From a virus (lineage: Duplodnaviria > Caudoviricetes), in the IMG/VR virus record IMGVR_UViG_3300037484_001941, positions 3,171 through 67,170 of that record: DNA of 64,000 nt, one strand, 5' to 3'. The notes under the pieces are model-generated. The model ran no database searches and was not told the origin of the DNA. It was given only the letters and a program-made list of their open reading frames with translations. Below are positions 1,028 to 54,616 of this stretch, one piece after another (the first letter of the stretch is position 1; every line of letters begins with the position of its first letter). Made by a program: the position numbers and the translations under genes.

Positions 1028-1030
1028 AAT

Positions 1031-8498: not shown

Positions 8499-8535
8499 AT
8501 TATAACAGGCCCGGAGGGGCTAGAGGAGTTAGGAA

Positions 8536-9284: not shown

Positions 9285-9287
9285 AAC

Positions 9288-9734: not shown

Positions 9735-9767
9735 GGGAACTTCGTAAAGACTGAAAGGTCTAATCAG

Positions 9768-9792
9768 AGTGGGGCGTAAAAACCCCACTTTT
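9768..9792 (+). terminator. terminator-like hairpin just before the tmRNA gene
   Basis: AGTGGGG/CCCCACT stem followed by a short T run. Confidence 0.45.
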
Positions 9793-9797
9793 CACAT

Positions 9798-14342: not shown

Positions 14343-14507
14343 ATGAAAAAATCGAGGAAGCGTGAGTTCGCCAAGGAAAAGCACGGGGAGACCTGTATGT
14401 GCAAGAGATGTCGTGCTAAAATTGAAGCGATTTTCTACAGAAAAGGACAACCAAAGATCAACGGCCGTGATTACAAGGATCTCTCAAGGGAGTCCTATGA
14501 CGATTAA
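14343..14507 (+). CDS. small hypothetical protein (54 aa, not in the ORF track)
   Basis: Manual translation MKKSRKREFAKEKHGETCMCKRCRAK...; fills the gap before map. Confidence 0.45.
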   Translation: MKKSRKREFAKEKHGETCMCKRCRAKIEAIFYRKGQPKINGRDYKDLSRESYDD

Positions 14508-15204: not shown

Positions 15205-15566
15205 TGTTGGAATATGTAATTTTCTGGATATTTTGTTATGTCATAGCCAGTGTTGTGGTTCAGCAGAAGATATTTGAGGAGCCGCGTTCCTGGCTTAAAC
15301 AGTGTTCAGCGGATAACCCAAATTGGTTTAGAAGGAAATTATGCCAGCTTGTAAGCTGTATGTTTTGCACCGGTTTTTGGGCAGGTATCTTTGTAAGTTT
15401 TGTACTAGGTTTTTGTCCAATAGACTTCGAGGTTCTGGGCCTATTCGGGGGTGATTTTAGCTATTATTTTTTGCACGGCCTGCTAGGGGCCTTTGGATCC
15501 TATACACTTCATTTACTGATGGGATTGCTTATTGAACACGCGGAGAGTCTTGGAATAGATACTTAA
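15204..15566 (+). CDS. membrane protein, DUF1360-like
   Basis: LVSCMFCTGFWAG CxxC motif between hydrophobic segments. Confidence 0.65.
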   Translation: MLEYVIFWIFCYVIASVVVQQKIFEEPRSWLKQCSADNPNWFRRKLCQLVSCMFCTGFWAGIFVSFVLGFCPIDFEVLGLFGGDFSYYFLHGLLGAFGSYTLHLLMGLLIEHAESLGIDT

Positions 15567-15575
15567 GAGGAGGCT

Positions 15576-16049
15576 ATGCTAGCTGTAATGTTTTGGGGAG
15601 ATGACGAACAGAAGCAGAAAACCAGAGTAGAAGAGAAATTGCGAAAGAAGAAAGAGGAACGAAGGGGGGAGAGAGCAAAGCAGCCCGTGCCCACCCACGA
15701 GCCCTCAGACTCTGGTAATGCGGAAGAACTCGCTCACCAAACTGAATTGATAGGTGCCCAACAAAGGGAACTTGTGGATTTGAAACACTTATTAGTACAG
15801 CAGGGCAAAGTCTTACAGCAGATACTGGAAAAGAAAGAGACTCACACAGTAGAGTCTATACGGTATGTTGAGAAAGAAACCAGGGAAGGCGGAGACGATT
15901 TACCTTCCCTACAAGAAATAAATGTAGACGTAATACACACAGAAGGGATAGAGACAACTGGGGAAGCAGGAGAAGAAGCAACAGAGGGGAAGAGTGTAAA
16001 AGACCGCGCGAGCAAGCTTCGCGCACTCATACAGAGAGGTAAAGAGTAA
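15576..16049 (+). CDS. coiled-coil/acidic hypothetical protein
   Basis: AGGAGG SD; TAATG-coupled to the actin-like gene. Confidence 0.7.
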   Translation: MLAVMFWGDDEQKQKTRVEEKLRKKKEERRGERAKQPVPTHEPSDSGNAEELAHQTELIGAQQRELVDLKHLLVQQGKVLQQILEKKETHTVESIRYVEKETREGGDDLPSLQEINVDVIHTEGIETTGEAGEEATEGKSVKDRASKLRALIQRGKE

Positions 16050-17131
16050 TGGAACAGAATCAACAGGCACCACAAGTGTATGTGCCAGGAATAGGGTTGG
16101 ATATAGGGACATCCTTCCTGCAGGTCGCTCGTGAGAGAGCCGACGGGGTGGTAGAGTTTATATCTGAACGAGACGCATTCTATGCGATAAAGCCAACATC
16201 AACCATAGCGGCAAAATTTATAGAAAAAAGTTTGACTCAAAGGGGCGCTTTCGTACTTAAGTCCGGAGGCGTTTTTTATGTTGTGGGTAAACAGGCTATA
16301 GAAACAGCTATTGAACGTGGAGACAATGTTGAAAGGCCGCTGAAACACGGTGTTGTGAGCGCCCGGGACAAAGAGTCTATGCCAATGCTGGCAGTTCTTA
16401 TAAAGGCTCTGGTCAAGAACTCGACCGTCCCCAACGAGATCTGTGTTTATAGTTATCCGGCTAACCCCATCGAGGGAACCTTTGACGTAGTTTATCACCA
16501 GAACCGTATGGCGGAGATACTCAGTAGTTTAGGTTATAGAGCCGTCCCGCTACTAGAAGCGGAAGCCTTAGCCTACTCAGAATTGATGGCTGAGGATCTC
16601 ACAGGAATAGCGATAAGTTGCGGGGCCGGGATGCATAACCTGGCCGTTTTTCATATAGGAGAATGCTTATTCTCTTTCTCGATAGCTGAAGGTGGCGACT
16701 ATATTGATAAAAGCGCAGCCACATCCTTGGGTGTATCAGAAACCGAGGTTCAGGCAGAGAAAGAAAATAATCTTAATTTGTTGGAGCCCGTAGGGGAAAT
16801 CCAAGAAACAGTAGTAATGTATTATCGTAACCTAGTCAACCACGTCATAACACTCCTAGAAAAGAAATTCAAAAATATGTCAAATCTACCCCACTTTCGG
16901 AAACCAATTACAGTTGTGGTTTCCGGGGGGACAAGTCTGCCCGTAGGCTACATGGATTTATTTAGAGAATTTCTCAAGGCAGAGTATGATGTCAGGACGA
17001 AAGAACTGAAGAAGATAAGGGATCGAGAGTTTCCATTCGAGATTGGGGAGGTTAAACAAGCCAATGACCCACTCACCGCAGTAGCAAATGGCTGTCTTAT
17101 CTACTCTCAGGTGGTTGGTTCTGAGGAGTAA
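16049..17131 (+). CDS. actin-fold ATPase (MreB/FtsA/ParM-like)
   Basis: Phosphate-1 GLDIGTS, phosphate-2 ISCGAG, GGDYID, adenosine VSGGTS and connect-2 DPLTAVANG motifs. Confidence 0.85.
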   Translation: MEQNQQAPQVYVPGIGLDIGTSFLQVARERADGVVEFISERDAFYAIKPTSTIAAKFIEKSLTQRGAFVLKSGGVFYVVGKQAIETAIERGDNVERPLKHGVVSARDKESMPMLAVLIKALVKNSTVPNEICVYSYPANPIEGTFDVVYHQNRMAEILSSLGYRAVPLLEAEALAYSELMAEDLTGIAISCGAGMHNLAVFHIGECLFSFSIAEGGDYIDKSAATSLGVSETEVQAEKENNLNLLEPVGEIQETVVMYYRNLVNHVITLLEKKFKNMSNLPHFRKPITVVVSGGTSLPVGYMDLFREFLKAEYDVRTKELKKIRDREFPFEIGEVKQANDPLTAVANGCLIYSQVVGSEE

Positions 17132-37115: not shown

Positions 37116-40100
37116 ATGGCTATAGCTAAATTTACAGGGGGTCCCCCAGGGCCAAAGGGAGATACAGGACCAACAGCTGATCGCGATATTAATTCTATGA
37201 TTATGCTGTCTTGGATTGCTCAGCCCATAGCCAAGGGACTAGATCTTTATACAAATAATTTCTCAACAAATAAAGGTGTGGATTCTAGCTCTACTGCTAT
37301 CTATAATTCCGCCGGTTTCTATGAGCCCCCGCAAGCAAGAGATGATTACTTGTTTAATTATGATTTTGACTCAACTGACAAGGTCGTGAGAGTAGACAAT
37401 AAGGGAAGTATTGCTTGGTGGTATCAAGACAACGGAGACTACGGGCATTTTGAGGGGGTTACTCTTACCGTAACCTCAGGTGGTGTTGCTGTTGATAAAG
37501 GTGGTGGTAAAGTTGGATTACCGTGTGTAGGCCAGTCCTTGGCAACTGGTAATTCTATTGAGGTTAGAGGTACCACATATTATAACGGAACAAACACTGT
37601 AGATGCTACTTCTTCTGCCGACGAGGTCGTAATCACAAGTGCTTATAACGCGGAAACTTTTGGTAATACTGCTACGATTCATCAGAGAATTGGGGTAGGT
37701 GCGGGTTTAGATAACACAGTTGTCCAACCATCTATGTCAGTTGAATTCTACGACGGTAACCCGCTCAGTATCCTCGTAGCATCCGGATCAGTATACCAGT
37801 CAGCTAGACTTGCTTCAGCTAAGCCCTCCGCGCGTGTTTCTGGAATCTACGAGGTGAGCTGCAACGGGACTTCAGTCTACCCCTCTTACGCTTATTCTAC
37901 TGCAGCTAGCGGGTGGCGGCAGGTTTTTAATGAGGTGCCGAATACCCGTGGCTGGACCTCGATGGTGTATGATCCTGTTAGCAAAGATCTTTGGGCATTC
38001 GGGGGCTACAAAAACGACACTGCCGCAAGAACGAATGAGATGTGGAGATACTCTACAGCTTCGGGACAGTGGTTTTACGTTATTACAAATGCCCCTCCTG
38101 CCGCCAGAGAGGGACACACAATGGTGTATGATCCTGTTAATGCACAGTTTCTACTGTTTGGTGGGTACACGGGATCAGCTTATCTTCAGGATCTTTACAA
38201 ATTTAATCCTCTCAATAGCCAGTGGACTTCTTTGTCTCCTACAGGAGGCCCACCAGGTCTACGGAACGCCCATGCCGCGGGTTATTCTTCTGTGAGTGGG
38301 ACGATGTTAATTTATGGTGGCTATAATGGCTCCGCTAGATTAAACGACGTATGGGAATATAATATAGGGACTAATGTGTGGAAGCAAATTGTACCTACTC
38401 TTAATGGTATGACTGGCCGCTCGGATACGCAGTATTGTTATCAGACTGTAAGTGGGGCTCTAGTCATACATGGAGGGTGGATAGCAGCTGAAACTGGTGA
38501 GACCTGGAAGTTTGATTACTATAAAAACGAGTTTCGTAAACTAACGAGTTCTCCGTATACAGCGAGGGCGGGCGCGGCTTTTTACGACGAAACTTCTGAT
38601 AAAATGTATCATATTGGTGGTTATTATAATAATCTTATGAACACTCAGGTTCCCGTGATATATAGCTATGACTTCAAAAGTGCATGGGGACAAGTAATAC
38701 CTAATCCTAATAATGGGCCTACACTGATGTACTACTTTGCTTATGCTTACGATACGGATAAAAGAGAATTTTATACTTACGCAGGGCATAACAGTGCTAA
38801 TTACCACGCTACCACTGCCTTATGGAAGTATAATGTTCCTGCTAATACTTGGGATACTATACACCCGCAGGCATTGGCGCGTCTCGGGGGTGCTTATGCC
38901 ACTAAGACGAACAAATTTTATATAGGGTTTGGAACCCCTCTAATCGCGAGTAGTTATTATGGGGGGCAGGAACTCTGGGAGTATGATTGTAGTAATGGAG
39001 TATGGACACGGATAAGTAATTATTATCTTGTAAATAACAGGGATGGCGGAGTTATGTACCTTCCTATAGCTTATTCACCAAACCTACACTGCTTATTTGC
39101 GTTTGGTGGACAGACTACCTTAGGAGCGTCAGCAAACTTGAATATATTACGCATGTTTGATTTAAATGCGAGCTACACAGCTAATAATCATAATTGGCAA
39201 ACACTTTACCCCTCTGGCCAGTGGCCGACGGCAAAGGCTGAACAGCTACAAGCCTACGATACCGATAACGATGTATTGTACCTGTTAGGGGGGTCTGGCT
39301 CTAACGCAGAGTTTTGGAAGTATGATGCTGTAACAAACTCGTTTGTGCGACTTCAGATACCGGGGCTTGCCCTGACAGTTAGATGGGCAACCTCTATGGT
39401 GTATGATAACATAAATAAATGCTTGTGGGCCTGGTGTGGCTACACCGGTACGGCTTATGTAAATGAGCTGTGGAGATTTGATATTGCTACGCAGTTGTGG
39501 ACGCAGATAGCATATGGTGGGGCTGTTCCCCCTATTCGTGGTAACACGTGTGTCGTCTTTGATGAAGTAACTCAATCTCTCTATTTATTTAGTGGAACAG
39601 CAAACGGTACTGCCCCTATCACTCCTGTAGACTTCTTTAAGTATGATGTCAGGACTAATACAGTGTATAAGATTACTGATACCTGGTCTCCTAATGCTAG
39701 ATTCAATTACGCTGCTGGGTTCAATAGTAGAACGGGAGAGATGTATGTATACGGAGGGGTGACTTCTGCCTTAAAGAGTACTACAGATTGTATTGCTTAC
39801 AAGGTATGGGACCGTACAACTACTTCTGGTGTTGTAGCAACCATGACTAGTGGAACCGGATTTCCCGCGGCTTGTAATTCGATTGGACACATCGTGGTTG
39901 ATGACAGCCTAGTAGGAAGTTCAGATATATACCACGCTTTAAGCTTTGACAGTACATCTAGCTTTAAAATGCTAAGTGTTGGTCCAGAGATTGCTCTGAA
40001 TGATCGGTCGTCTGTTGTAGACAAAGGTTCTGGTTTAGTTGGTTTTCCTTGTAATTCACATCCTTTTTCTCCTGGTGACTTTCTAAGGGCGTATAACACG

Positions 40101-40829
40101 GATCATTACAATACTAACTATTCTGTAGACCCCGCTACATCTACAAACGAAATTGTAGTTAGCGGAACATATATAGCAGAAACTTTTACTAGCTCAGCAA
40201 AGGTTAGAAAAGTGATAGGCTGGAAATCTATTGTTCAGCAGAGTGGCGGTAGCTGGCAATACCTTACTGATGCTTCTGTATGGCAAAATGCTTCGAGTAA
40301 TGATGTTAAGGCGGCTTTACAACAAGCTTTTACTGTGAGTGGAAATAGAATGAATGGTGCCGCCCTGGAGAGTATATACCCCGCAGAGTACACTATGGCT
40401 AGCGGGTATACTTCTGGGGACTCCCTGGATTTTGGCGTAGGTTTTTATTCTCCATCGAGCCCTCTTCCAGAGTTAAGTAGATATGAGGTTATTTATTCCG
40501 CCGGGTCCAATAATTTAACACTTTTCACCGAGGCTTGGAGTGCATCACAAAATGACCCCACAGCTACAAAGTGTTTAATCAAGACAACTTATACGGGAAG
40601 TATTACGTTGGATATGGATCTGACTGTGTGGGTAAGTATTGATGGCGGGGTTAATTATGAGCAGATTTCTGGTTTATCCCTGCTTAGGAGCGATGGTAAC
40701 GAGCACTATATTGCTGGCTCTAAGATTAATATAACTCCCCGTGGTTCTAACCAAGTAAAATTGAAGATTACCACACATAACTCGAAAGAAATCAGGATCA
40801 ATTCTGTTGGTATGGCTGTGGGGTATTAA
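37116..40829 (+). CDS. Kelch-repeat (beta-propeller) virion protein, 1237 aa
   Basis: Many xxYD...FGG...W.Y repeats flanked by a duplicated VDKG.G.VG.PC domain. Confidence 0.85.
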   Translation: MAIAKFTGGPPGPKGDTGPTADRDINSMIMLSWIAQPIAKGLDLYTNNFSTNKGVDSSSTAIYNSAGFYEPPQARDDYLFNYDFDSTDKVVRVDNKGSIAWWYQDNGDYGHFEGVTLTVTSGGVAVDKGGGKVGLPCVGQSLATGNSIEVRGTTYYNGTNTVDATSSADEVVITSAYNAETFGNTATIHQRIGVGAGLDNTVVQPSMSVEFYDGNPLSILVASGSVYQSARLASAKPSARVSGIYEVSCNGTSVYPSYAYSTAASGWRQVFNEVPNTRGWTSMVYDPVSKDLWAFGGYKNDTAARTNEMWRYSTASGQWFYVITNAPPAAREGHTMVYDPVNAQFLLFGGYTGSAYLQDLYKFNPLNSQWTSLSPTGGPPGLRNAHAAGYSSVSGTMLIYGGYNGSARLNDVWEYNIGTNVWKQIVPTLNGMTGRSDTQYCYQTVSGALVIHGGWIAAETGETWKFDYYKNEFRKLTSSPYTARAGAAFYDETSDKMYHIGGYYNNLMNTQVPVIYSYDFKSAWGQVIPNPNNGPTLMYYFAYAYDTDKREFYTYAGHNSANYHATTALWKYNVPANTWDTIHPQALARLGGAYATKTNKFYIGFGTPLIASSYYGGQELWEYDCSNGVWTRISNYYLVNNRDGGVMYLPIAYSPNLHCLFAFGGQTTLGASANLNILRMFDLNASYTANNHNWQTLYPSGQWPTAKAEQLQAYDTDNDVLYLLGGSGSNAEFWKYDAVTNSFVRLQIPGLALTVRWATSMVYDNINKCLWAWCGYTGTAYVNELWRFDIATQLWTQIAYGGAVPPIRGNTCVVFDEVTQSLYLFSGTANGTAPITPVDFFKYDVRTNTVYKITDTWSPNARFNYAAGFNSRTGEMYVYGGVTSALKSTTDCIAYKVWDRTTTSGVVATMTSGTGFPAACNSIGHIVVDDSLVGSSDIYHALSFDSTSSFKMLSVGPEIALNDRSSVVDKGSGLVGFPCNSHPFSPGDFLRAYNTDHYNTNYSVDPATSTNEIVVSGTYIAETFTSSAKVRKVIGWKSIVQQSGGSWQYLTDASVWQNASSNDVKAALQQAFTVSGNRMNGAALESIYPAEYTMASGYTSGDSLDFGVGFYSPSSPLPELSRYEVIYSAGSNNLTLFTEAWSASQNDPTATKCLIKTTYTGSITLDMDLTVWVSIDGGVNYEQISGLSLLRSDGNEHYIAGSKINITPRGSNQVKLKITTHNSKEIRINSVGMAVGY

Positions 40830-43360
40830 TGGCTATACTACAAGATGTTGCAATAGGTGGAGTAAAAGGCAGTATAGGAGATATGGGTTCGGCTAGTTCC
40901 GGGACAGTATTTTCTATTGCTATGTCCACTTGGACGCTCAATATTGATAAACTCCAATTTGATGATATTTGCTGCAATAATTTTATAGCCGGATCTGGTA
41001 TAGATCCTGCTTCAACGGTTTATTATCATCCCGCGGGCTTCGTTACCAGTCCATCCACGGGGTCTGGTATCTCATATCAGACCAGTGTGGATAATCCTTT
41101 TACCACTACAACTTTAGTAGATGAGTTTAGTTTTCCTAATGTGTCCGGTTCATTGAGGCCTCCCGGCCTGGAGAATGCGGCTGCAGCCTACTCTAGTCAA
41201 GACAACGCTATGTATATTTTTGGTGGCTATGACGAAAACCAACTCTGTTCTGATCTATGGAAGTTTGAGTGTGACTCCTGTCAGTGGACAAAACTTTCTC
41301 CACCCGCCAGCCCCGCAGCAAGGCATTCTCACTCCATGGTTTATAATTCAATTAGTGGCAGTCTCGTTGTGTTCGGAGGAACTGTTGCATCTGGCTCCGA
41401 GGGAGATTTGTGGTCCTACTCTATAGCTGATAATGTATGGATGCAAATACCCAGAACAGGAGATGGCCCCTATGACAGGACGGAGCATACATCCGCTTAT
41501 GATTCAAGTGCTAATCAAGTATTTGTATTTAGAGGTAGGGGCGACTCTGGATCATTTTTTAGTGAATTGTTTAGGTATAATTTTTTTGATAACACTTGGA
41601 GGCGTGCAGACTCTTCAACTGGTTCACACTGCAGAACCAGTTTAATTTATGATGCTGAAGAGAACGAGTTATTAGTTATTGCTGGATACAACTCCACTAG
41701 AAACATTGTCTCTACTATTTACAGTTATGGTATATACACTTATGCTTGGGCTCAGCAAACATCAGCATGGCCTTATTCACGTTACAACCATTCAACTGTT
41801 TTTGATCCATTTTCTCGTAATCTCCTAGTCTTCGGTGGTTATACTGATGGAGATCAGGCGATCTATGGCGTGTCTGTCTATAATATAGATACAGGAGCTA
41901 CTGCCGATACCCCTACCAACTACCCAGACCTCTGTAGAGTGGGGCATTGTGCTATATTTAGTACTAAGGATAGCTCAATGTATGTATATGGTGGCCGTGC
42001 AGACGCGCGTAGCCTCATCTCTTCTCAGATGATCAAGTACACTCATTTACAGACAACTTACGCTGAAGGTATCAATGTTCGTTATTCCGAACGGTTTTTA
42101 ACCAAGACTTGGGCACATCTAGACTCAATCAAAATGGATTCTGTTAGTAAGGCAGAATCTCGTGTGTATAACGCTGTTAGTTTCGACAATGGCAATGTGT
42201 GGAAAATATATCATCCTGTAGATAAGTGGGTTGCTATTGTACAAAACTCGGGGAGCACCTGGCAATACCGTAATGACGGAGGCGGCTGGACCAATTCCCC
42301 TATTAACACGCTAGATAACGCTTTGGAGAAAGCCTTCTCTATTAGCATAAATCAGTGGGCAAGAGACATAGTTAGTGAGTGGAACGAGAAAGACCAAAGT
42401 AGTATCCCTCTATTGAATACTAACAACTATTCTTTGGGGGCTTATGTAGCGTCTGCTTCGTCTCAATATAATGCTGATTGTAATGCTTACCGTGCGTTTC
42501 AGGGGTATGTTAATCTGGGAGCAGATGCTTCTTATTGGATGGCTACCCCTATAAATGGACAGTGGCTTCAGATAGACCTGGGAGATAAACCTATATGGCC
42601 TAGGGAATGGAGAATTAGAGCTCCATGGTATAGTGTAGGAACGGGCGCGCGGTGCCCTAAGCGATTCAAGATAACAGCGTCTAATGATCTGGTGCAGTGG
42701 GATGATATAGTTACTACCTTTTCTGGGGCAGACATGCCTAATCCTACAGGAGATAAATTTACGGCTTGGTATCCTACCACTGCTACTGGTATATATCGTT
42801 ACATCAGACTAACTACTTACAGTGCTCAGATTGATGTAACCTATGTTGGTATTAAAAAATTAGATTTCAAATCGTCATGGGATATAAACTCCTTAGCAAG
42901 AGAGCATTGGGAGTCTACCGGCGGTTTTGTTTCAGGAGCTACCTCCTCTGTTCAGATAGCATTAGGGTTTTTCACAAAAGGCAGTATTCCGACGGTCAAT
43001 AGCGTTACACCAACCTATGTGACGGTGGTACAGCCCAACACAGAGCTGATTACAGACTCTTGGTTAGCCTCAGCTAATAATCCGTCAAAGGCCCAATGCG
43101 TAATAAAATGTAAGCTGGTTGATTCGATTATTTTGAACACAGATCTTACAGTATACGTCAGTATGGACGATGGGGTCAATTACGAACAAGTTACTGACTT
43201 ACAGATAGTTTCTACGGTTAACGGATTTACATATATTATGGGAAGTAAGCCTGGGCTAGAAGCTAGAGATTCTAACATTATGAGAGTTAAGATCGTAATA
43301 TCAAATTTCAAAATGGTACAAATTTATGGAACATGTTTAGGAGTAGACTACCAGTATTAA
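40829..43360 (+). CDS. Kelch-repeat virion protein with F5/8 (discoidin)-like insert, 843 aa
   Basis: Kelch repeats, then ASASSQY...AYRAF...QWLQIDLG discoidin pattern; C-terminus similar to the previous gene. Confidence 0.85.
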   Translation: MAILQDVAIGGVKGSIGDMGSASSGTVFSIAMSTWTLNIDKLQFDDICCNNFIAGSGIDPASTVYYHPAGFVTSPSTGSGISYQTSVDNPFTTTTLVDEFSFPNVSGSLRPPGLENAAAAYSSQDNAMYIFGGYDENQLCSDLWKFECDSCQWTKLSPPASPAARHSHSMVYNSISGSLVVFGGTVASGSEGDLWSYSIADNVWMQIPRTGDGPYDRTEHTSAYDSSANQVFVFRGRGDSGSFFSELFRYNFFDNTWRRADSSTGSHCRTSLIYDAEENELLVIAGYNSTRNIVSTIYSYGIYTYAWAQQTSAWPYSRYNHSTVFDPFSRNLLVFGGYTDGDQAIYGVSVYNIDTGATADTPTNYPDLCRVGHCAIFSTKDSSMYVYGGRADARSLISSQMIKYTHLQTTYAEGINVRYSERFLTKTWAHLDSIKMDSVSKAESRVYNAVSFDNGNVWKIYHPVDKWVAIVQNSGSTWQYRNDGGGWTNSPINTLDNALEKAFSISINQWARDIVSEWNEKDQSSIPLLNTNNYSLGAYVASASSQYNADCNAYRAFQGYVNLGADASYWMATPINGQWLQIDLGDKPIWPREWRIRAPWYSVGTGARCPKRFKITASNDLVQWDDIVTTFSGADMPNPTGDKFTAWYPTTATGIYRYIRLTTYSAQIDVTYVGIKKLDFKSSWDINSLAREHWESTGGFVSGATSSVQIALGFFTKGSIPTVNSVTPTYVTVVQPNTELITDSWLASANNPSKAQCVIKCKLVDSIILNTDLTVYVSMDDGVNYEQVTDLQIVSTVNGFTYIMGSKPGLEARDSNIMRVKIVISNFKMVQIYGTCLGVDYQY

Positions 43361-46271: not shown

Positions 46272-46283
46272 AATTAGCTAACC
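46272..46283 (+). promoter_or_regulatory. copy of the conserved intergenic 12-mer (AATTAGCTAACC)
   Basis: Upstream of the lysis cassette; a partial copy (AATTAGCTGA) overlaps the preceding stop at 46259. Confidence 0.6.
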
Positions 46284-46292
46284 TGATATAAG

Positions 46293-46319
46293 GCAGGGTC
46301 GTAAGGCCCTGCTTTTTTT
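46293..46319 (+). terminator. intrinsic terminator after the capsid operon
   Basis: GCAGGGTC-GTAA-GGCCCTGC stem-loop followed by seven T. Confidence 0.85.
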
Positions 46320-46384
46320 ATGTACTTTAACTTCCCACCTTCCTCCTAATAGAGATATATTCCTAAGGCATGGAGGCCGCTAAA

Positions 46385-46801
46385 ATGAGTGACAAGAATT
46401 TTGAGGAACTGGAAAATGTTCCCCAGGCAAAGCCGATACAACAACGAGAGATAATGGAAGTTAAAGACGAATGGCCTTTTTGGCAGAGAGTCGTGGGCAA
46501 TATTGTCAACGCTCTTCCCACAGTCTTGTGGGCCGTCGTGACTGTTGCATTGTTAATTCTGTTTCAGGGCAATGCTGAGCTAGTCGGACTGAGCCAGGCT
46601 TACATGAACTTAGTTGTTCCTGCAACCGCCTATGGCATCCTTTCCCTGTCTGCAGGTCTAACTTTGATTTCTTGGTTTTTCCCCTACTTTTCATATAGAC
46701 GAATGATGAAGGATGGAACTCCTATAGAGAAAGCTGCCTGCATGGCTTTTTGGGGGCTTATAGCTATAGCCTTAGCCTTGGTGATAGCAAGCGTGGCATA
46801 A
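46385..46801 (+). CDS. holin-like membrane protein
   Basis: Three hydrophobic segments; first gene of the lysis cluster; ATG 46385 after GGAGG. Confidence 0.55.
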   Translation: MSDKNFEELENVPQAKPIQQREIMEVKDEWPFWQRVVGNIVNALPTVLWAVVTVALLILFQGNAELVGLSQAYMNLVVPATAYGILSLSAGLTLISWFFPYFSYRRMMKDGTPIEKAACMAFWGLIAIALALVIASVA

Positions 46802-46802
46802 T

Positions 46803-47402
46803 ATGAAAAAGGCACTGTTGGGCATACTGCTGGGGCTGTCCATATTTTTGGTAGCTCATGCTAGTCAGATCCCCAATGACCCTATTCCTAACCCAGCAAA
46901 GATTCAGTTTAAGACCTGTGAGGAGAGGATCCTGTATAGGTTAAATTTCTATTCAGACCTCTTAGTGAAGTACAGGATACCGTATGTGTGGGGAGGTTTC
47001 TGGGGGCTGTTCGGGGTGGATTGTAGCGGATACATGTACTGGATTTGCCACATGGCGGGACTCCCAGTTAAAAGGGTGAACTCCCTGCGTATGTGGTTAG
47101 ACCATGGGGCGTGGCCGGGGGAACGAGTTTTGGTTAAATTTGATGCCCATGACCGGGCACAGTTCCCTGATCTCTTGTTTTGGACTTATGACCCAAAGAG
47201 ACCCAAGGGACATACAGCTTTGGTGATAATAAACGCTGAGGACAAGAAGGGACATAGGACTATACTATTTCGAGAGGCGTCTTTTAGTCAGAAGATAGTT
47301 AAAGAGACAGAGATGAAGCAGGGGGATTACAGGTGGGTAAGATTAGAGGGAGTTTTGGTAATGGATTTGACCCCTGGGTTTAAGTGTGGTCTCGGAGGAT
47401 AA
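46803..47402 (+). CDS. NlpC/P60 peptidoglycan hydrolase (putative endolysin) with N-terminal signal
   Basis: PYVWGG...GVDCSGY catalytic Cys, GHTAL His, hydrophobic N-terminus. Confidence 0.8.
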   Translation: MKKALLGILLGLSIFLVAHASQIPNDPIPNPAKIQFKTCEERILYRLNFYSDLLVKYRIPYVWGGFWGLFGVDCSGYMYWICHMAGLPVKRVNSLRMWLDHGAWPGERVLVKFDAHDRAQFPDLLFWTYDPKRPKGHTALVIINAEDKKGHRTILFREASFSQKIVKETEMKQGDYRWVRLEGVLVMDLTPGFKCGLGG

Positions 47403-47403
47403 A

Positions 47404-47697
47404 ATGCTTTTCTTTCCAGGAGCTATAAGCTCATTCTTTGCTACAGTTTTGTTTTTCGTAGTCGTGGTTGGGGGAGGTCTTGCCACTGTTAAGATATATT
47501 ACCAGAAGGCTAAGATAACCTCTTTGGAAAAAAAGATTGTGCAGTACCAAGATGCTGTAGCTGCCATAGACGACAAGGAAAAGTATTTCAAAAAAAGTAT
47601 AGAGGTGCTGCAAAGGAGCTGTAATCGAACGGTTAAGCCAGCAGTGACCGGGGGGAAACTAAATGTGGAGAACTTATTTAACAATGAACCTAGGTAA
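47404..47697 (+). CDS. putative inner-membrane spanin
   Basis: N-terminal TM segment then coiled coil; overlaps a lipoprotein gene. Confidence 0.6.
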   Translation: MLFFPGAISSFFATVLFFVVVVGGGLATVKIYYQKAKITSLEKKIVQYQDAVAAIDDKEKYFKKSIEVLQRSCNRTVKPAVTGGKLNVENLFNNEPR

Positions 47698-48043
47698 GTA
47701 CATAGCTATTGCGGCAATCATTCTGATAGGTGGGTGTTCCTCGGTCCCTCAGGTGACGAGGAGCTCTGAGATACCTATACCTAAGATGCCTAAATCCGTA
47801 GTTACAGACAGCGGTAAGGTTGACAAGAGCAAGTTTCCTGACACCATATGGATAAAACCGCCTGTAGTAGACAATGAAAAACAGCGGGCTTATTGGAGTT
47901 TCGAAGACGTAGACCAGATCAATAAGAATCTAACTGAATGGCCAGCTTGGGGCAAAGATATGAAGGAACTCGTAGAGGGGCATAACAAACTCGTCGGCGG
48001 AGGCGGGGGCCAAAAAGAGCAGAGGTCTTGGCGACCATGGTAA
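47684..48043 (+). CDS. putative outer-membrane spanin lipoprotein
   Basis: Signal MNLGKYIAIAAIILIGG-C with lipobox Cys18; Pro-rich mature part. Confidence 0.65.
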   Translation: MNLGKYIAIAAIILIGGCSSVPQVTRSSEIPIPKMPKSVVTDSGKVDKSKFPDTIWIKPPVVDNEKQRAYWSFEDVDQINKNLTEWPAWGKDMKELVEGHNKLVGGGGGQKEQRSWRPW

Positions 48044-48046
48044 ACA

Positions 48047-48496
48047 ATGCCCCGAGAGAAGAAGAACCAGGATAGACATGTACAGTTGTTAGATGAACTG
48101 GAGGACATAGTATCCTTACTGGCACAGCAGACGGACAGTAAGACGACTAATCTTCAGGTCCATATAGAACAACAACGAAAGCAGCTAGAGGAGCAGGACA
48201 GCCGCCGCTGGAAATGGTTTGTTATCATAGCTAGCTCTATTCTTTTGGCAATAGGGATAATTACTTTCGAGATGTGGGAGCGACAATACGATAGAATTAA
48301 CTCTGTTGAAAAGCAAGTTGTCAAGATGGACACGTCGATAGACGTGCTGAAAGAGAACAGTTTGAAAAAGTACGAGTTTAGAGAGCAACTCGAAGACTAC
48401 AAAAAGAAGGCCGCAGAGGACAGGGAGAAAAAAGACAAAGAGATGGAAGACAGGATAAAATTGTTAGAAGACCTTGCGCTGCCGAGGAAAAAATAA
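48047..48496 (+). CDS. single-pass membrane coiled-coil protein
   Basis: One TM segment (WFVIIASSILLAIGII) between coiled coils. Confidence 0.65.
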   Translation: MPREKKNQDRHVQLLDELEDIVSLLAQQTDSKTTNLQVHIEQQRKQLEEQDSRRWKWFVIIASSILLAIGIITFEMWERQYDRINSVEKQVVKMDTSIDVLKENSLKKYEFREQLEDYKKKAAEDREKKDKEMEDRIKLLEDLALPRKK

Positions 48497-48882
48497 TGGA
48501 TATACTCATCGTCGAAAATGATATAGTTGTGACTAAAATGTGGTCCAAGAAATTGTCCAAAGACCACGAAGTGCGCATAGCAGAATCAGTTATGCAGGCC
48601 AAAGAAGAAATAGAGAAAAAGATGCCAGACTTAGTGATATTAGACCTACGACTTAACGGGCCTACTAATTCGGGGCTTAACATTTATGATTTTATCCGGG
48701 AGGAATTGCAGGAAAATATTCCTATCATTTTTATAACCGGACTTGCCTACAGTGTAGACCTGTTTCAGAGAGCGCAGCAGTTGAGCAGTATGGATGACTT
48801 GTCTGGCATAACTACAAAGTTAGTGGAGAAACCTATAAAGATAAACGAGCTGTCTAGTCTGGTTAATACACTAACAGCTTAA
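48496..48882 (+). CDS. single-domain response regulator (CheY-like)
   Basis: ILIVEND, PDLVILD (phospho-acceptor Asp), FITG and EKP all present. Confidence 0.9.
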   Translation: MDILIVENDIVVTKMWSKKLSKDHEVRIAESVMQAKEEIEKKMPDLVILDLRLNGPTNSGLNIYDFIREELQENIPIIFITGLAYSVDLFQRAQQLSSMDDLSGITTKLVEKPIKINELSSLVNTLTA

Positions 48883-48900
48883 TGAGGAACGGGCCGCATA

Positions 48901-51900
48901 ATGGATAAAGCAGTCGGGGGATTCAAATTCAAGTGGCGCTGGGTAGGCTTGCTAGTTGTGCTCGCGGCTCTTACTCTGACCGGCGGGTATAATTACTATC
49001 TATCTGAAACTCATCGAATAATCAACGAAAAACAAAAAGAACTTGTAACCATTGGTGAACTAAAAGTTAAACAAATAGCCCGGTGGAGGGAAGAGCGTGT
49101 TCTTGACGCCGAGCCCGTTGTTAAAAGCTTGTACTTTAGGGAAGTTTTCTTTGCGTGGTACAATGATCGGAAGGACCGGGACGCTGAGGCTAAATTAATA
49201 GACCGACTGTCTCTATTTAGAGAAATAGAAAGGTACCACGACGCGTTCATCGTGGATACTGCTGGTAATGTATTAATAGCTAGTAGCGGAAGAAATGGCC
49301 CGGTGGGCCCCGAGACATTAAGGTGTGTCCAGACAGTCGTGGAATCTAAAAAGCCCAAACTCGGCAACTTGCATTTATCCACCTACGACAAAATACCGGT
49401 CATAGACACAATGGCCCCTATCTTAAACAGTAATGGAGAGCTTAAAGGCATTCTACTGTTAAGAAGCTCCCCAAGAACCTATTTATACCCCATGTTAGAG
49501 ACCTGGCCCGTTCCTAGTAAGTCTTCCGAGGCCCTAATAGCACGCAAGCAAGGTAATGATGTGGTTTTTTTGAGCCCGCGTAAGATAGAAGAAGATGCTC
49601 TCTTTTCAAGGGTATCCATAGAAGCTGATCTACCATCGGCTAAGGCCGTTACCGGAACAACAGGGATTTATGTTGGTCCCGACTACCGCGGCCGGCAAGT
49701 TATGTCCTATTTGGCGGCTGTAAAAGATTCTCCATGGTTTCTTGTTTGTAAGGTAGACCTGGAAGAAATTTATAAAGAAACCAAGTATAAGAGAACTGTC
49801 ATTGTCATGTTTTCTCTGACAGTAGCATTCTTGCTGCTGTTGTCTATTGCGTTTACTTACCGCAATCAACAGGCTTCGGCCTTGAATAAGCTTTATCTGT
49901 CCGAAATAAAAGAAAAAGAAATTAGAGAAAAGTTCGAGTTTATGTTCAATTTTGTTCCCATGGGGATCATGCACTTTGATTCCACCGGGGCAATTACTGC
50001 TTGCAATGATCAGTTTGTTCAGATAATAGGGTCTAGCAGAGAGCAGTTAATAGGGCTGAATACGATTAAGGACATAGCAGATGAAAAGATGATAGAGGCT
50101 ATCTCCCTCTGTCTCAATGGAGAGGTGGGTTTTTATGAGGGCTACTACACGTCTGTTACTGCCAATAAGACAACCCCAGTAAGATGTGAATTTGCTCCCA
50201 TTAAGGTGGGTGGTAAGGTGCAGGGGGGGATAGGTTTAATTAAGGATATCACGTACAGGAAGAGGGCTGAACAAGCCATTCAAGTTAGCGAGTTGCGTTA
50301 CAGGAAACTGTTTGAATGTGCCAGGGATGGTATCCTAATACTCGATTATGACACAGGCAAAATTTTAGATGCTAATCCATATCTCATGGAGATTTTAGGT
50401 TACTCTCATTCTGAGTTCTTAAACAAGTATTTGTGGGAAGTCAGTCCGTTTAAAGACGCCGCTTTAAACAAAGATTCTTTTGAAAACTTGAAAGCCACAG
50501 GTTATACGCGTTACGAAGACTTGCCTATAGAAACAAAGGACGGTAGGAAAATAGACGTAGAATTTGTGAGTAACTGCTATCCAGCAAATGGGCAAACCTA
50601 TATTCAGTGTAACATTAGAGACACTACAGAAAGGGTTATTCTTCAGAGACGACAGGACTTCTTCATTGATACCCTGAAAATGCTGAATAGGCCTTTTGCA
50701 GGCCCAAAAACAATAGAGGATCTTCTCGTACTCATACAGTCTTATACTGGTATAGAGGCCATAGCCATAAGACTCCAAGAAGGGGAGGACTATCCTTATT
50801 TTGTTTACCGGGGTTTTGATAAACAGTTCATCAAGATGGAAAGTTCTCTGTGTGCTCGTGATTCTAATAGGTGTGTAATACGAGATCCTGAGGGCAAACC
50901 CGTGTTGGAGTGCATGTGCGGGTGTGTAATCCGGGGACAAACTGATCCCGCCTATCCTTTCTTTACCGATAGGGGAAGTTTCTGGACTAATAGCACTAGC
51001 ACGTTAATAAGCGGCAGCTTGCAGGTGAAATCCAGGAACACCTGTAACGCCCAGGGTTACGAATCGTTAGCTATCATACCACTTTCTACTGGACCCGAAA
51101 TTATAGGATCTTTACAGTTAAACGACAGGAGCCCGGGCGTGTTCAACGATTCTTTGATAAGGTTCATGGAAGAGATAGCCCTTATTATAGGTGTGGCGGT
51201 AAGAAGAACCTGGCAGGAGGATCGTATAAAGCTTTTGGAGGTAGCTAAGACTAAAGATCAGCTGCAGTCTTCACGGCTTTTGAATTCCGGTATAGCGCAT
51301 GAATTGCGGACCCCCATGCAGGCATTACTTAACTGCTTAGAATTAATACGGGAAGAGGTAGGAGCAACTTGTGATTACAGCTGCGAGGCCTCTGAGAAAG
51401 CAGATTGTCCAATGAAAAAGCCTGTTTGTGACAGTAAGCAAAGTATATTGGAGCTAGTCGATGACGGCCTGGAAAGAACCGAGTATTCTGTTAAGGTATT
51501 GAATTCATTGTCGGAGTACTCAAAGATAGCTAGTGCAGACGAGGTGCATTTAATTAACGTTGTTCCAGAACTGAAGACTATAATGAGGACACTTATGTTC
51601 ACCGACCAATTTAAGTGTATGAAAGAAGATAATTTTATCTTAACTAATAAAGACGAAGAGGAAGGGTGCTTTGTGTCAATAAATAGAGTTGACTTCTCTC
51701 AGCTCATAACAAACCTATGCAGAAATTCCAGGGAAGCCATTGTAAGCGAAGAGCCAAGAATAGAGATAGTAGTATCCCGTGCGGTTGAGGGGATTCAAGT
51801 TGTTATTATTGACAATGGAAAAGGAATAGATAAGGCATTAGGAAATAAGATATTTGAACCGTATTTTTCTACAAAGGAAAATCCGGACGGATATAACCAA

Positions 51901-52020
51901 GGACTCGGATTGGCAATGGTGAGAGACATCATTGCAGCCTACGGAGGGACAATAAAATATACAAGTCAGCCGGGGCACACGGAGTTCACAGTCACATTGC
52001 CATGTGAAAGTATAGAATAG
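48901..52020 (+). CDS. membrane sensor histidine kinase (Cache-like, 2 PAS, GAF, HisKA, HATPase)
   Basis: Two TM segments, two PAS-PAC blocks, Cys-rich GAF, H-box IAHELRTP, N-box NLCRNSREA, G1 DNGKGI, F-box FEPYFSTK, G2 GLGLA. Confidence 0.93.
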   Translation: MDKAVGGFKFKWRWVGLLVVLAALTLTGGYNYYLSETHRIINEKQKELVTIGELKVKQIARWREERVLDAEPVVKSLYFREVFFAWYNDRKDRDAEAKLIDRLSLFREIERYHDAFIVDTAGNVLIASSGRNGPVGPETLRCVQTVVESKKPKLGNLHLSTYDKIPVIDTMAPILNSNGELKGILLLRSSPRTYLYPMLETWPVPSKSSEALIARKQGNDVVFLSPRKIEEDALFSRVSIEADLPSAKAVTGTTGIYVGPDYRGRQVMSYLAAVKDSPWFLVCKVDLEEIYKETKYKRTVIVMFSLTVAFLLLLSIAFTYRNQQASALNKLYLSEIKEKEIREKFEFMFNFVPMGIMHFDSTGAITACNDQFVQIIGSSREQLIGLNTIKDIADEKMIEAISLCLNGEVGFYEGYYTSVTANKTTPVRCEFAPIKVGGKVQGGIGLIKDITYRKRAEQAIQVSELRYRKLFECARDGILILDYDTGKILDANPYLMEILGYSHSEFLNKYLWEVSPFKDAALNKDSFENLKATGYTRYEDLPIETKDGRKIDVEFVSNCYPANGQTYIQCNIRDTTERVILQRRQDFFIDTLKMLNRPFAGPKTIEDLLVLIQSYTGIEAIAIRLQEGEDYPYFVYRGFDKQFIKMESSLCARDSNRCVIRDPEGKPVLECMCGCVIRGQTDPAYPFFTDRGSFWTNSTSTLISGSLQVKSRNTCNAQGYESLAIIPLSTGPEIIGSLQLNDRSPGVFNDSLIRFMEEIALIIGVAVRRTWQEDRIKLLEVAKTKDQLQSSRLLNSGIAHELRTPMQALLNCLELIREEVGATCDYSCEASEKADCPMKKPVCDSKQSILELVDDGLERTEYSVKVLNSLSEYSKIASADEVHLINVVPELKTIMRTLMFTDQFKCMKEDNFILTNKDEEEGCFVSINRVDFSQLITNLCRNSREAIVSEEPRIEIVVSRAVEGIQVVIIDNGKGIDKALGNKIFEPYFSTKENPDGYNQGLGLAMVRDIIAAYGGTIKYTSQPGHTEFTVTLPCESIE

Positions 52021-52037
52021 GACAGGAGGATTTATTA

Positions 52038-52652
52038 ATGGCATACTACATCAAGAATATAAGCGAGAATTACGCTTGGATTCTGAAAAACCAGCTAGGG
52101 CCGGGAGAAACCTTGAACCTGACGAAAGTGTTCCAAGGGTTCTGTAAACCAAAGGCAGCCTCAAGGGCAGAAGCTAACAACCCGAAGTTCTCTGAATTTA
52201 ATGAGCACGAGTTCGACGAATTCTTGGACTGGGTACAGGAAGAGATTTTGGTAGACAAGGGGACCTTTGAGTTACTGAATGACGCTGACCTGCCTGACGG
52301 CGAGGAAGAGTATAGCGAGGACTTCGCTACTCGGACCTCCAAGCGGAGAGCTTTCCGAAAGGCTGCTAAGCCAATAGGAGACATAAAGGTCAGGGGAGAC
52401 GTAGAGGCGATTAAGGATAAAAGAGTCACACATAAGCAGGTAGGCAAAAAACTGCCTTCCCAGAAGGAGATTTCTCCAAAGGAAATAGCTTGGCTCCCAT
52501 TTGACAACGTGTCTAAGAGAATCATCGGTGACATCGAGGATATTCGTAGACTTAAAACGGCGTTCCGTTTGGTTCGTAATATCAATGGCCAAGAGAGAAC
52601 ACGAAAGTTGATTGAGGATAGGATCAACGAATTAGCTTCTGTGGGAAGATAA
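52038..52652 (+). CDS. hypothetical protein (head-completion region)
   Basis: AGGAGG SD, 204 aa, helical C-terminal module. Confidence 0.7.
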   Translation: MAYYIKNISENYAWILKNQLGPGETLNLTKVFQGFCKPKAASRAEANNPKFSEFNEHEFDEFLDWVQEEILVDKGTFELLNDADLPDGEEEYSEDFATRTSKRRAFRKAAKPIGDIKVRGDVEAIKDKRVTHKQVGKKLPSQKEISPKEIAWLPFDNVSKRIIGDIEDIRRLKTAFRLVRNINGQERTRKLIEDRINELASVGR

Positions 52653-53203
52653 TGATTGATCAGGCTTTCATAGATGAATTCAGGAAGGACCAGAAGCAGC
52701 ATGTTCTGGACCTAAGTAGGAATACTATCATAGGTTATGGTAGTAGTATAGAAGAGGAATGTCCTAACTGTACCTACGACGGTGTGGCTGGGGCTTCCGG
52801 TGCTTCCTTTACTTCATTTAGTGGAACCGTGACGGTGTTGGAGGGGACCCCCTACGCTAAGACTTTTGAAGCTAAATCGTTCAGAAGGCATTGCCCCGTG
52901 TGTGGGGGTAAGGGGTTCTTCTCTGCTCCTAATGAAAAAACCATAAAGGCCCATATCAATTGGGCTGATAAAGATCGTAACAGTTATCCTAATTCCCCGG
53001 TGGGAATTTCAGGACAGAATACAGTTAAGATAAAAGCCGACAGCATATACTACGATGACTTTCTTGTTGCTACCTACTTCAAGGTAGACGGTGTCACTGT
53101 AGAGCCTATAACAACCCCGGTCATCCGAGGCATGGCTGCCGCTGATGGTATTGTGGAGATTTGGTGTGGAACTACCGACACAGGGAAGGCAGTAAAGAAA
53201 TGA
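52652..53203 (+). CDS. putative head-tail joining protein with Zn-binding CxxC pairs
   Basis: CPNC and CPVC; position before neck and tail genes. Confidence 0.55.
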   Translation: MIDQAFIDEFRKDQKQHVLDLSRNTIIGYGSSIEEECPNCTYDGVAGASGASFTSFSGTVTVLEGTPYAKTFEAKSFRRHCPVCGGKGFFSAPNEKTIKAHINWADKDRNSYPNSPVGISGQNTVKIKADSIYYDDFLVATYFKVDGVTVEPITTPVIRGMAAADGIVEIWCGTTDTGKAVKK

Positions 53204-53802
53204 AGAAGATAGCCCCGGATGTATTAAAAAACCTGAAGGAGTATTTAAGCTCTGAGGGGCCTGGGGGGAAGAAGGTCATAAACGCATTCATGGAGCAATT
53301 TGAAAAGCTCAGCGAGAGATCTCCTAAGGATGACCCCACCAATTTGAAAAATCATATGATGTTTCTTTTGTCCCATATAAAAAAGACGTGGGATGAGAGT
53401 TTGAGTATAGCCTCGGACGGAACCATCAATATAGGTGTATGTAGTGACGAGACTTTGGGTTTCGATGTTAACCGGGCAAAGTTAAAGCACCACCCCAGCC
53501 CGGTTGTGTGGACTGTCTATCTTATAAGAGGAATAGGGGGAAGGTATGCCTTTGTTAACCCAGACACTTATTTTAAGAAACACGGCCACCCCATGCCCCC
53601 ACAGTACTTCGGGGGTTTTCTGATTAGCAAAAGAGCGTGGAAAAAAGAGGGCTGGGATAGCGCGGTGGGTTCTTTTGAATCCTATGAGCATCCGTCCTCA
53701 GGAGCGTCTCCTATACCGCTGTTTCAGAATGTCATTAGGAGCATTGATATACAGGGTTTGGTCTCCGAGGTATTAGGAGAGATGGAGGTAGAGGTCTTAT
53801 GA
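53200..53802 (+). CDS. putative neck/tail-completion protein
   Basis: ATGA overlap at 53200; positional inference. Confidence 0.5.
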   Translation: MKKIAPDVLKNLKEYLSSEGPGGKKVINAFMEQFEKLSERSPKDDPTNLKNHMMFLLSHIKKTWDESLSIASDGTINIGVCSDETLGFDVNRAKLKHHPSPVVWTVYLIRGIGGRYAFVNPDTYFKKHGHPMPPQYFGGFLISKRAWKKEGWDSAVGSFESYEHPSSGASPIPLFQNVIRSIDIQGLVSEVLGEMEVEVL

Positions 53803-54602
53803 AATTAACCAGGCAAGAAGATGTCAGCATGTACTTCTATCTTCGTGACATGGTCATAGGTCCACAATACGTTGAGGTTTTTGAAGAAGAAGAATTAGTG
53901 CTGGCGGAATCCGGAAAGTGGGACATGGCTTATCCTACTACTACGAACATCCATCCTTTCAGCAGAGGCACTCACAGCGGGTTGGGGCGGGGCCTGTTGT
54001 ACTTCGATCTTGCATTCGACTCTTGTCTGTTTGGGCCTGAACAAGATGATATGGTAAGAGTATATGATGGCACAGGGGACCTACCTCGCATTGATTATTC
54101 CGTAAACTACTTGACTGGACAGGTTTATTCCAATCTTGATCTCTCTGATTATTCCGTAGACTACTACTGGCATTATGTATCTGTTATTGATGCTTGGCCG
54201 CAGGAGGATGTACCTGACTTGCCTGTCGTGAGTATAGAGTTGCAGCTATCCGAAAGTCTGCCCCTCCAGCTAGGCGGAGGAGATATTAGGGGTGCTAGCT
54301 GGCATGTAGAGATTTTTGCCAACAATAAGGGAGAGCGGGACGATCTCATGGATGTAATCTTTGAGGGAATAAATCTAAGACGTTGTCCTATTTATACATT
54401 TGAGGGAGGCTTGCCTTTAACTAGAGAGGGCCTGTACAACTCAGATTTTGTGGTAGAGGAGAACCTTAATTATCCCAGTCTTTTCTTTGAAAACGCGAAA
54501 AAAAGCCTAACTGGTTTACCTAGTTGGGGTTTTTATCAGAACGAAGTGATTAACAAGTACAGAGCTGCAATAACCTTTGATACAAAAGCCTATAAGAAAT
54601 AG
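53799..54602 (+). CDS. putative tail terminator protein
   Basis: WHVEIFANNKGERDDLMDVI pattern; directly before the tail tube gene. Confidence 0.55.
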   Translation: MKLTRQEDVSMYFYLRDMVIGPQYVEVFEEEELVLAESGKWDMAYPTTTNIHPFSRGTHSGLGRGLLYFDLAFDSCLFGPEQDDMVRVYDGTGDLPRIDYSVNYLTGQVYSNLDLSDYSVDYYWHYVSVIDAWPQEDVPDLPVVSIELQLSESLPLQLGGGDIRGASWHVEIFANNKGERDDLMDVIFEGINLRRCPIYTFEGGLPLTREGLYNSDFVVEENLNYPSLFFENAKKSLTGLPSWGFYQNEVINKYRAAITFDTKAYKK

Positions 54603-54604: not shown

Positions 54605-54616
54605 AATTAACTAACT
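54605..54616 (+). promoter_or_regulatory. copy of the conserved intergenic 12-mer (AATTAACTAACT)
   Basis: Three nt after a stop; upstream of the tail tube gene. Confidence 0.55.

Follow-up and report, generated by a model that had tools for sequence, protein, structure and literature searches.

Lysis timing sets the burst size and fitness of a phage, and to our knowledge lysis inhibition in phage T4 is the only well-understood instance in which that timing depends on a signal. Receivers that consist of a single domain and act by protein contact are known from bacterial signaling, as in CheA/CheY-FliM, DivJ/PleC-DivK, CckA-ChpT-CpdR, and Spo0F; CheY, for example, binds the N-terminus of FliM. 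Here, we describe a stand-alone receiver and a sensor histidine kinase which are encoded, together with a small membrane protein, directly behind a candidate lysis cassette in a stretch of viral DNA (hereafter the window) comprising 64,000 of the 67,170 bases of a single record, IMGVR_UViG_3300037484_001941. An intact set of kinase, receiver, and membrane protein genes, under selection and found only in phages, is fixed behind the lysis genes. We consider it very probable that receiver and kinase form a functional two-component system resident in the phage. That the three-gene module on the end of the lysis cassette tunes lysis timing, with the receiver acting on the membrane protein, is, judging from sequence, about an even bet.

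T4 lysis inhibition involves the holin T and two antiholins, the periplasmic sensor RI and the cytoplasmic RIII (PMC8385771). What the locus described here would have in common with it, in our proposal, is that a late periplasmic signal shifts holin-dependent lysis via small inner-membrane proteins; the means differ, in that T4 uses direct protein binding whereas the phage here would employ a ligand-binding Cache kinase with a presumed effect on lysis. A PHROG scan of ten proteins gave no match to RI or RIII. In staphylococci, the two-component system LytSR controls the holin/antiholin-like Cid/Lrg proteins (PMC4830213), and by analogy a membrane sensor kinase may be coupled to holin-like lysis control in our case too. 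LytSR, however, is cellular, with a LytS sensor that spans the membrane several times and a DNA-binding LytR of the LytTR type that acts on transcription, and a Pfam scan found neither a LytS-type sensor nor a LytTR output at the locus. We regard T4 lysis inhibition and LytSR as the nearest working analogies, with no components shared.

Kinases of phages have been described in other settings. AgrC of the Clostridioides difficile phage phiCDHM1 is a host-derived agr homologue which lies beside agrB and agrD without a response regulator (PMC3901668). It is the best-known kinase of a phage and, along with a sasA-like one in Microcystis phage MaAM05, belongs to the very few histidine kinases in deposited phage genomes. 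Unlike phiCDHM1 AgrC, the kinase studied here has its own receiver and no close cellular relative, is fixed in its phage lineage, and lies behind a candidate lysis cassette. A survey of jumbo phages mentions receiver domains only outside kinase systems (PMC7824862), and our literature search returned no published account of a phage lysis cassette that includes a receiver and its kinase.

By sequence membership, the pair belongs to the HisKA-class two-component systems; its sensor is a dCache, and its D-D pocket is atypical. It resembles bacterial two-component systems in its HisKA-type kinase with all boxes, its Asp/Thr/Lys receiver without an output domain, the adjacency and coinheritance of the two genes, and its modular dCache, PAS, and GAF sensors. 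It departs from them in being encoded by a phage and belonging to phage-only families, in carrying V-E-N-D in place of the D-D pocket, and in a Cys-rich insert within the dimerization and histidine phosphotransfer (DHp) domain. The single-domain systems of bacteria differ from it further, since its genes always come with one for a small bitopic membrane protein and with lysis genes, with no flagellar, cell-cycle, or sporulation context.

A preliminary description of this DNA, made from the letters alone, had proposed a receiver and a 1,039-amino-acid (aa) membrane kinase at this locus, and open reading frames (ORFs) and Pfam domains place both exactly where it had put them. The receiver matches Pfam Response_reg above the cut-off (E 7.5e-12). 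Direct reading also bears out the claimed overlap at its start: within TAATG at 48494-48498, the stop codon TAA (48494-48496) shares a base with the receiver ATG (48496-48498), and GAGGA is found 8 nucleotides (nt) upstream. In agreement with the claim that an output domain is lacking, the AlphaFold2 (AF2) model of the 128-aa protein (predicted local distance difference test [pLDDT], 93) is a single (beta-alpha)5 fold with nothing attached; compared with solved receivers, it reaches template modeling scores of 0.75-0.8, its neighbors being NtrX, VicR, PhoB, FrzS, RR468, and DivK.

The preliminary description had further stated that all kinase boxes and receiver residues are intact. This held for the boxes and for D50, T81, and K112, which are present in 64/64, 63/64, and 63/64 sequences, respectively, but failed at the position of CheY-D13, which is occupied by Asn8 (V-E-N-D) in all 63 of 63 family members; the neighboring D9 is found in 58 of the 63. 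Because Asn8 is invariant throughout the family, we regard it as a hallmark and not as a sign of decay. A pseudo-receiver was likewise considered and ruled out, the phospho-acceptor being fully conserved. The family is sharply delimited: 63 clusters score 95-235 bits with the receiver profile, followed by a gap to 67 bits or less, and every member carries V-E-N-D, LDLRLNGP, FITGL, and K-P. This signature is absent from 185,579 species-representative genomes and within IMG/VR is confined to the near group of relatives introduced below, while a metagenome scan with the receiver profile added just two family loci.

The kinase exceeds the Pfam cut-offs for PAS_9, PAS_8, PAS, and HATPase_c (E 1.8e-19), with weak matches to dCache_1 (25.7 versus a cut-off of 45; E 1e-5), HisKA (23.7 versus 26.9), and GAF. 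Its boxes (H-box IAH800ELRTP, N-box N938-N942, G1 D971-N-G-x-G975, F-box F985, and G2 G1001-L-G-L) are invariant across eight aligned phage kinases, and a profile of the kinase aligns the DHp and catalytic ATP-binding (CA) domains with the structures of HK853, ZraS, NtrB, and FixL. Sensing parts were found on both sides of the membrane, where the preliminary description had proposed periplasmic and cytoplasmic cues: a dCache in the periplasm and two PAS domains with a Cys-rich GAF-like domain in the cytoplasm. For residues 30-300, the AF2 model (pLDDT 92) shows two stacked modules, i.e., a double Cache, which Foldseek matched to the sensor domains of PctA, PscC, DctB, and KinD at E 1e-10 to 1e-8. 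Of the transmembrane (TM) helices on either side, TM2 (296-321) is clear and TM1 (about 13-30) a weaker hydrophobic run with a Kyte-Doolittle mean of 1.35. The GAF-like domain is conserved in the window and in the relatives L001, L004, and L020, and the region has no informative solved relative.

Two clusters of Cys residues were seen in the kinase, one at window positions 50851-51045 (aa 651-715, in the GAF-like domain) and one at 51370-51429 (C824/C828/C836/C843, between the DHp helices). Kept in part of the clade, they could constitute a metal or redox site.

Across relatives, the sensor end is the sole part of the kinase that varies. The TM-dCache-TM form is found in the window, in L001 (here without PAS1), and on the two closest contigs; an N-terminal receiver followed by PAS in L002, L004, L020, and L073; and two to three TM helices with almost no loop in L007, L010, and L071.

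The third conserved member of the module is a 149-aa membrane protein, most likely the best candidate for a target of the receiver. Its predicted topology comprises about 53 cytoplasmic residues, a TM segment, and a charged coiled-coil tail. An alignment of nine homologues shows the strongest conservation at the cytoplasmic N-terminal motif ELE(D/E)L(I/V)xLLAQ(Q/T)(S/T)DS..(T/I)NL, and the C-terminal part varies freely. The protein has a weak Rz-like PHROG match, and an Atlas search gave generic long-helix look-alikes only. Its family consists of 35 clusters, all at 95 bits or above, and for at least 20 of these the receiver family is represented on the same contig.

While IMG/VR scans that used the kinase or the capsid-like protein as a single sequence gave no match, alignment-based scans did reach relatives, and close relatives on P0002 and P0003 contigs were compared by gene tables. 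The kinase search yielded relatives at 80, 71, 78, and 59% identity and further ones at 49%, all sharing the gene order, as did contigs reached via distant receivers. An IMG/VR scan with a 554-aa neighbor of the block returned 64 loci. In the near group, whose 554-aa protein is at least 58% identical, cassette, membrane protein, receiver, and kinase always occur together; at about 55 distant loci (554-aa protein, 38-47%), no NlpC/spanin cassette, receiver, or kinase is detectable at the site, which holds only a small protein with two to three TM segments, and five large genomes of the distant group are without the receiver family altogether. Because the distant relatives lack both cassette and trio, the block looks like one insertion, gained in the near group.

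The linkage is tight. We compared DNA from 11 distinct receiver loci. Wherever it extends downstream (9/9), an H-box kinase follows the receiver at a distance of -13 to +18 nt, and a bitopic membrane protein of 140-182 aa overlaps or abuts the receiver start in 10 of the 11. The exception is L007, where a LAGLIDADG homing-endonuclease gene has been inserted at the junction of membrane protein and receiver. The trio follows directly 3′ of the spanin-like genes in 7/7 relatives with upstream DNA (L001, L002, L004, L007, L010, L020, and L071), with the adjacency kept even as the lysis proteins have diverged to 23-35% identity among these relatives. In L010, an SLT transglycosylase replaces NlpC/P60, and the trio still stands behind the spanin-like genes. 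Compared with the window, L002 shows 70% identity in the receiver, 59% in the C-terminal part of the kinase, 68% in the capsid-like protein, and 29-35% in the lysis proteins, so that receiver and kinase have been conserved about as well as the capsid-like protein in this distant relative. The identity of the receiver tracks that of the kinase core with a Spearman coefficient of 0.72 (28 nonindependent pairs), versus 0.37 for the receiver and the 554-aa protein. Receiver and kinase thus have the appearance of an adjacent, coinherited cognate pair. Apart from this pair, two near-complete relatives of 256 and 260 kb lack any receiver or kinase, and DNA-binding regulators are missing from them as well. 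The comparison of related phages that the preliminary description had called for accordingly reproduced the order with the pair present, and the physical tie to the lysis cassette that it had drawn was found in every relative with readable upstream DNA.

Selfish elements were observed in or beside the block of several relatives (L002, 6027-7148; L007, 4476-5294; L010, 1281-2468 and 3144-4151; L071, 4713-5531). They include a TnpB/IS605 OrfB gene and several LAGLIDADG homing-endonuclease genes.

The signaling genes are under purifying selection. Between the window and L001, the ratio of nonsynonymous to synonymous differences (pN/pS) is 0.22 for the receiver, 0.18 for DHp-CA, and 0.33 for the Cache sensor; we give pN/pS in place of the rate ratio dN/dS because synonymous sites are saturated. 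As to origin, a tree of 127 DHp-CA regions unites all synteny-verified phage kinases and 23 metagenomic proteins in one clade (29 members; SH-like approximate likelihood ratio test [SH-aLRT], 100; stem, 1.19), and 0/56 cellular kinases fall inside. Among the species-representative genomes, no cellular protein comes closer to the catalytic core than about 32% identity. PAS2 is the only domain with a nearer cellular look-alike, at 58% identity, from a contig of an Acidobacteriota metagenome-assembled genome (MAG). In 50,697 deposited phage records, the kinase found 16 hits, most of which look like misfiled bacterial contigs or unannotated fragments. The kinase phylogeny suggested in the preliminary description thus gave a phage-only clade and no near-identical host gene. 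A host-derived auxiliary gene was rejected in view of the core identity of about 32% to cells, the phage-only clade, and the presence of the pair in all near relatives examined. Matches to named MAGs were also set aside as a clue to the host, being generic PAS or kinase similarity.

Upstream of the trio, the genes at 46370-48043 fit a candidate lysis cassette of the usual make-up for a diderm host (Table 1). The holin-like protein has no family match; the endolysin candidate contains the DCSG Cys and GHT His motifs, and the lipobox of the o-spanin-like protein is seen also in L007, L010, and L020. For the plus strand from 46370 to 54500, we found no strong intrinsic terminator, just weak 5-10 bp matches, in keeping with the earlier statement that none separates the holin-like gene from the kinase, and a Shine-Dalgarno sequence was read in front of each of three genes, namely receiver, kinase, and the one that follows. 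Of the flanks given in the preliminary description, the spanin-like side stood; the name "head-tail joining" for the downstream genes is unsupported because these genes have no family match in Pfam or PHROG scans. Homologues of the 183- and 267-aa proteins occur 5′ of the 554-aa protein in nearly all 64 related viral loci, and the block as a whole is enclosed by structural genes, with the capsid-like gene on one side and the gene of the 554-aa protein, a member of the structural module, on the other. The 554-aa protein has no solved-structure relative, Atlas giving only a weak tail-tube lead. Among the downstream genes of L001 (13943-14848), L002 (14827-15681), and L071 (14509-15450), there is a sulfotransferase-like gene (PF03567) which is absent from the window.

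A 12-mer, WATTARCTAACY, occurs in five copies in the window (at 7338, 27169, 43418, 46272, and 54605) versus 0.10 expected; all are on the plus strand, intergenic, and 5′ of late gene blocks. The 12-mer may represent a promoter. The copies at 46272 and 54605 bracket the holin-like gene through the 267-aa gene. In L002, the 12-mer lies directly 3′ of the kinase, which would place the kinase in the lysis unit and not in the structural unit.

Table 1. Features of the lysis/signaling unit and its surroundings (positions in the window)
Feature	Position	Strand	Remarks
12-mer copy AATTAGCTAACC	46272..46283	+	upstream of unit; kept at syntenic sites in L001, L002
11-bp G+C-rich hairpin followed by T-run	46290..46315	+	upstream boundary of lysis/signaling unit; equivalents in L001, L002
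Holin-like protein, 143 aa, three hydrophobic segments	46370..46801	+	TM scan; homologues at same place in relatives, 41-83% identity
Endolysin candidate, N-terminal signal/TM (1-24) and NlpC/P60 peptidase	46803..47402	+	Pfam NLPC_P60, 25.6 bits (cut-off 23)
i-Spanin-like protein, 103 aa, TM 7-39	47386..47697	+	overlaps next gene; weak PHROG Rz-like match, E 9e-4
o-Spanin-like lipoprotein, 126 aa, lipobox LIGGC	47663..48043	+	PHROG 812 Rz-like spanin, E 1.2e-6
Bitopic membrane protein, 149 aa, TM 54-78, coiled-coil C-terminus	48047..48496	+	stop overlaps receiver start
Stand-alone receiver, 128 aa	48496..48882	+	E7-N8-D9, D50 (codon 48643-48645), T81, K112-P113
Sensor histidine kinase, 1039 aa	48901..52020	+	TM-dCache-TM-PAS-PAS-GAF-HisKA-HATPase
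Periplasmic double-Cache sensor, aa about 40-295	49018..49785	+	between TM1 and TM2
Two cytoplasmic PAS domains, aa 352-455 and 466-577	49954..50631	+	Pfam PAS_4, PAS_9, PAS_8, PAS
GAF-like domain with Cys cluster	50668..51210	+	C651, C658, C671, C673, C675, C715; weak Pfam GAF
DHp and CA domains	51238..52008	+	H800 codon 51298-51300; Cys-rich insert aa 822-850
Four tightly packed conserved genes (204, 183, about 200, 267 aa)	52038..54602	+	start 17 nt past kinase stop
12-mer copy AATTAACTAACT	54605..54616	+	downstream boundary of unit
Giant ORF	from 58745, open to window end at 64000		relatives: 11,249- and 15,895-aa ORFs at same position

How might such a module work? We propose that it would be expressed late, together with holin, endolysin, and spanins. 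A kinase dimer in the inner membrane would bind a small periplasmic ligand through the double Cache and read the state of the cytoplasm via the two PAS domains, the Cys-rich GAF-like domain, and the Cys-rich DHp insert. Autophosphorylation on His800 would then be followed by transfer of the phosphoryl group to Asp50 of the receiver, which the kinase may also dephosphorylate, as its HExxT motif suggests. Because the receiver has no output domain, it would have to act by protein contact; a transcription-factor output was rejected, since DNA-binding domains are lacking from the receiver and from the rest of near-complete relatives. Much as CheY docks on the N-terminus of FliM, the receiver may dock on the conserved cytoplasmic N-terminal helix of the cotranslated 149-aa Rz-like protein, which would in turn bring forward or put off the triggering of the holin or the disruption of the envelope, and a sensed signal would thereby set the time of lysis. 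A more specific version, to which we give clearly less credence, is a programmable lysis inhibition with interchangeable sensors, whose output would be neither transcription nor the flagellar motor, the phospho-receiver gating holin triggering or spanin action via the Rz-like protein. Equally tentative are the inputs it would take, namely an extracellular or periplasmic small molecule (dCache), the state of the membrane (two to three TM helices), and phospho-signals of the host (receiver-PAS).

Several observations weigh against control of lysis timing by this module. The Asn at the position of CheY-D13 lies in the Mg2+ pocket, so the chemistry of phosphorylation may be unusual. The holin and spanins are identified by topology and weak PHROG matches (E 1e-6 to 1e-3), and the trio equally adjoins the four conserved downstream genes, with a gap of 17 nt. 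At 46272, the 12-mer is followed within 7 nt by a terminator-like hairpin, an odd order for a promoter and a terminator, and the presumed cotranscription is read from gene spacing, the lack of strong terminators, and the 12-mer. Finally, the clade includes kinases that stand apart from a trio, e.g., that of L006 and a second copy in a 545-kb record; since these other huge phages have clade kinases without the trio, the kinase is not tied to lysis genes everywhere.

The kinase of L006, an ENA contig of 647,399 bp, is a receiver-PAS-GAF protein (8001-10091) whose core is 67% identical to that of the window, in a different gene context. L006 itself is a very large phage-like contig with a tRNA synthetase, an archease, and many small ORFs. 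A homologue of the 149-aa membrane protein is recorded on a contig of identical length.

Instead of timing lysis, the module could take over signaling in the host by exchanging phosphoryl groups with its two-component proteins, as a sink, as a decoy, or through cross-phosphorylation, and so reprogram motility, envelope stress, or the cell cycle, its position among lysis genes being incidental. A receiver without an output domain, the lack of a DNA-binding regulator in near-complete relatives, and the clade kinases outside the trio would all suit such a role, and a host kinase could phosphorylate the N-terminal receiver borne by the L002, L004, L020, and L073 kinases. We nevertheless consider it unlikely. 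Receiver and kinase are always adjacent and codiverge as cognate pairs do, and the sharp separation of the receiver family from all cellular receivers argues against mimicry of a host regulator; moreover, late expression beside the holin would leave little time for reprogramming, and the strictly linked membrane partner would be left unexplained.

Less likely still, in our estimation, is that the module steers another late step, such as assembling or maturing virions through the four downstream genes, deploying the giant protein encoded farther downstream, or excluding superinfection at the membrane. In the window, neither a terminator nor a 12-mer lies in the 17 nt between the kinase stop and the next gene, and the block is embedded in a structural array that runs from the capsid-like gene to the 554-aa gene, as one would expect for a role of this kind. 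However, the downstream genes occur without the trio in about 55 distant relatives and therefore do not need it; in L002, a 12-mer copy separates them from the kinase; and the trio is always found 3′ of the spanin-like genes, its membrane member being Rz-like. That the genes were captured from a host in recent times (as a passenger or moron), are remnants in decay, or stem from a chimeric assembly is highly improbable: the provirus label and 34% completeness of the record in IMG/VR and the 58% identity of PAS2 to an Acidobacteriota MAG protein could be cited for these readings, but the core reaches at most about 32% identity to cellular proteins, both families are phage-only, selection is strongly purifying, G+C content is even over the locus, and chimerism, a concern raised in the preliminary description, is not borne out because the synteny recurs in independent JGI, ENA, and Logan assemblies.

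The record is a fragment of a huge, uncultured phage, since CheckV rates it 34% complete and related records of 211-545 kb 86-100% complete. The provirus call is probably a trimming artifact because its boundary cuts the giant ORF, and the trimmed part is most likely the remainder of that giant gene and not host DNA; the identical kinase is also recorded on a contig of 104,186 bp. A Pfam scan of the first 1,751 residues of the giant ORF gave no match, and a DNA similarity search of the 50,697 deposited phage records returned none for the window.

Elsewhere, the window encodes a large terminase, a portal, and a capsid-like protein. Positions 37116-43360, 5′ of the capsid-like gene, hold two large Kelch-repeat beta-propeller proteins (1,237 and 843 aa) which are kept in relatives and may have receptor-binding or host-interaction roles. 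At 275-2611 (minus strand) and 14362-17131, we noted a LAGLIDADG-like protein, a peptide deformylase with a SEC-C motif, a stand-alone caspase-family protease, a Met-aminopeptidase, and a Volactin-type actin-like protein. A clamp-loader subunit is likewise encoded in the window.

With three small genes, clear point mutants (H800 and D50), a ligand-binding domain that can be screened, and swappable sensors, the module is unusually testable. With it, the families of histidine kinases and receivers gain a branch restricted to phages, whose receivers invariably have Asn in the metal pocket. If the proposed control of lysis timing is true, some phages would themselves gauge chemical or physiological cues and tie the killing of the cell to them.

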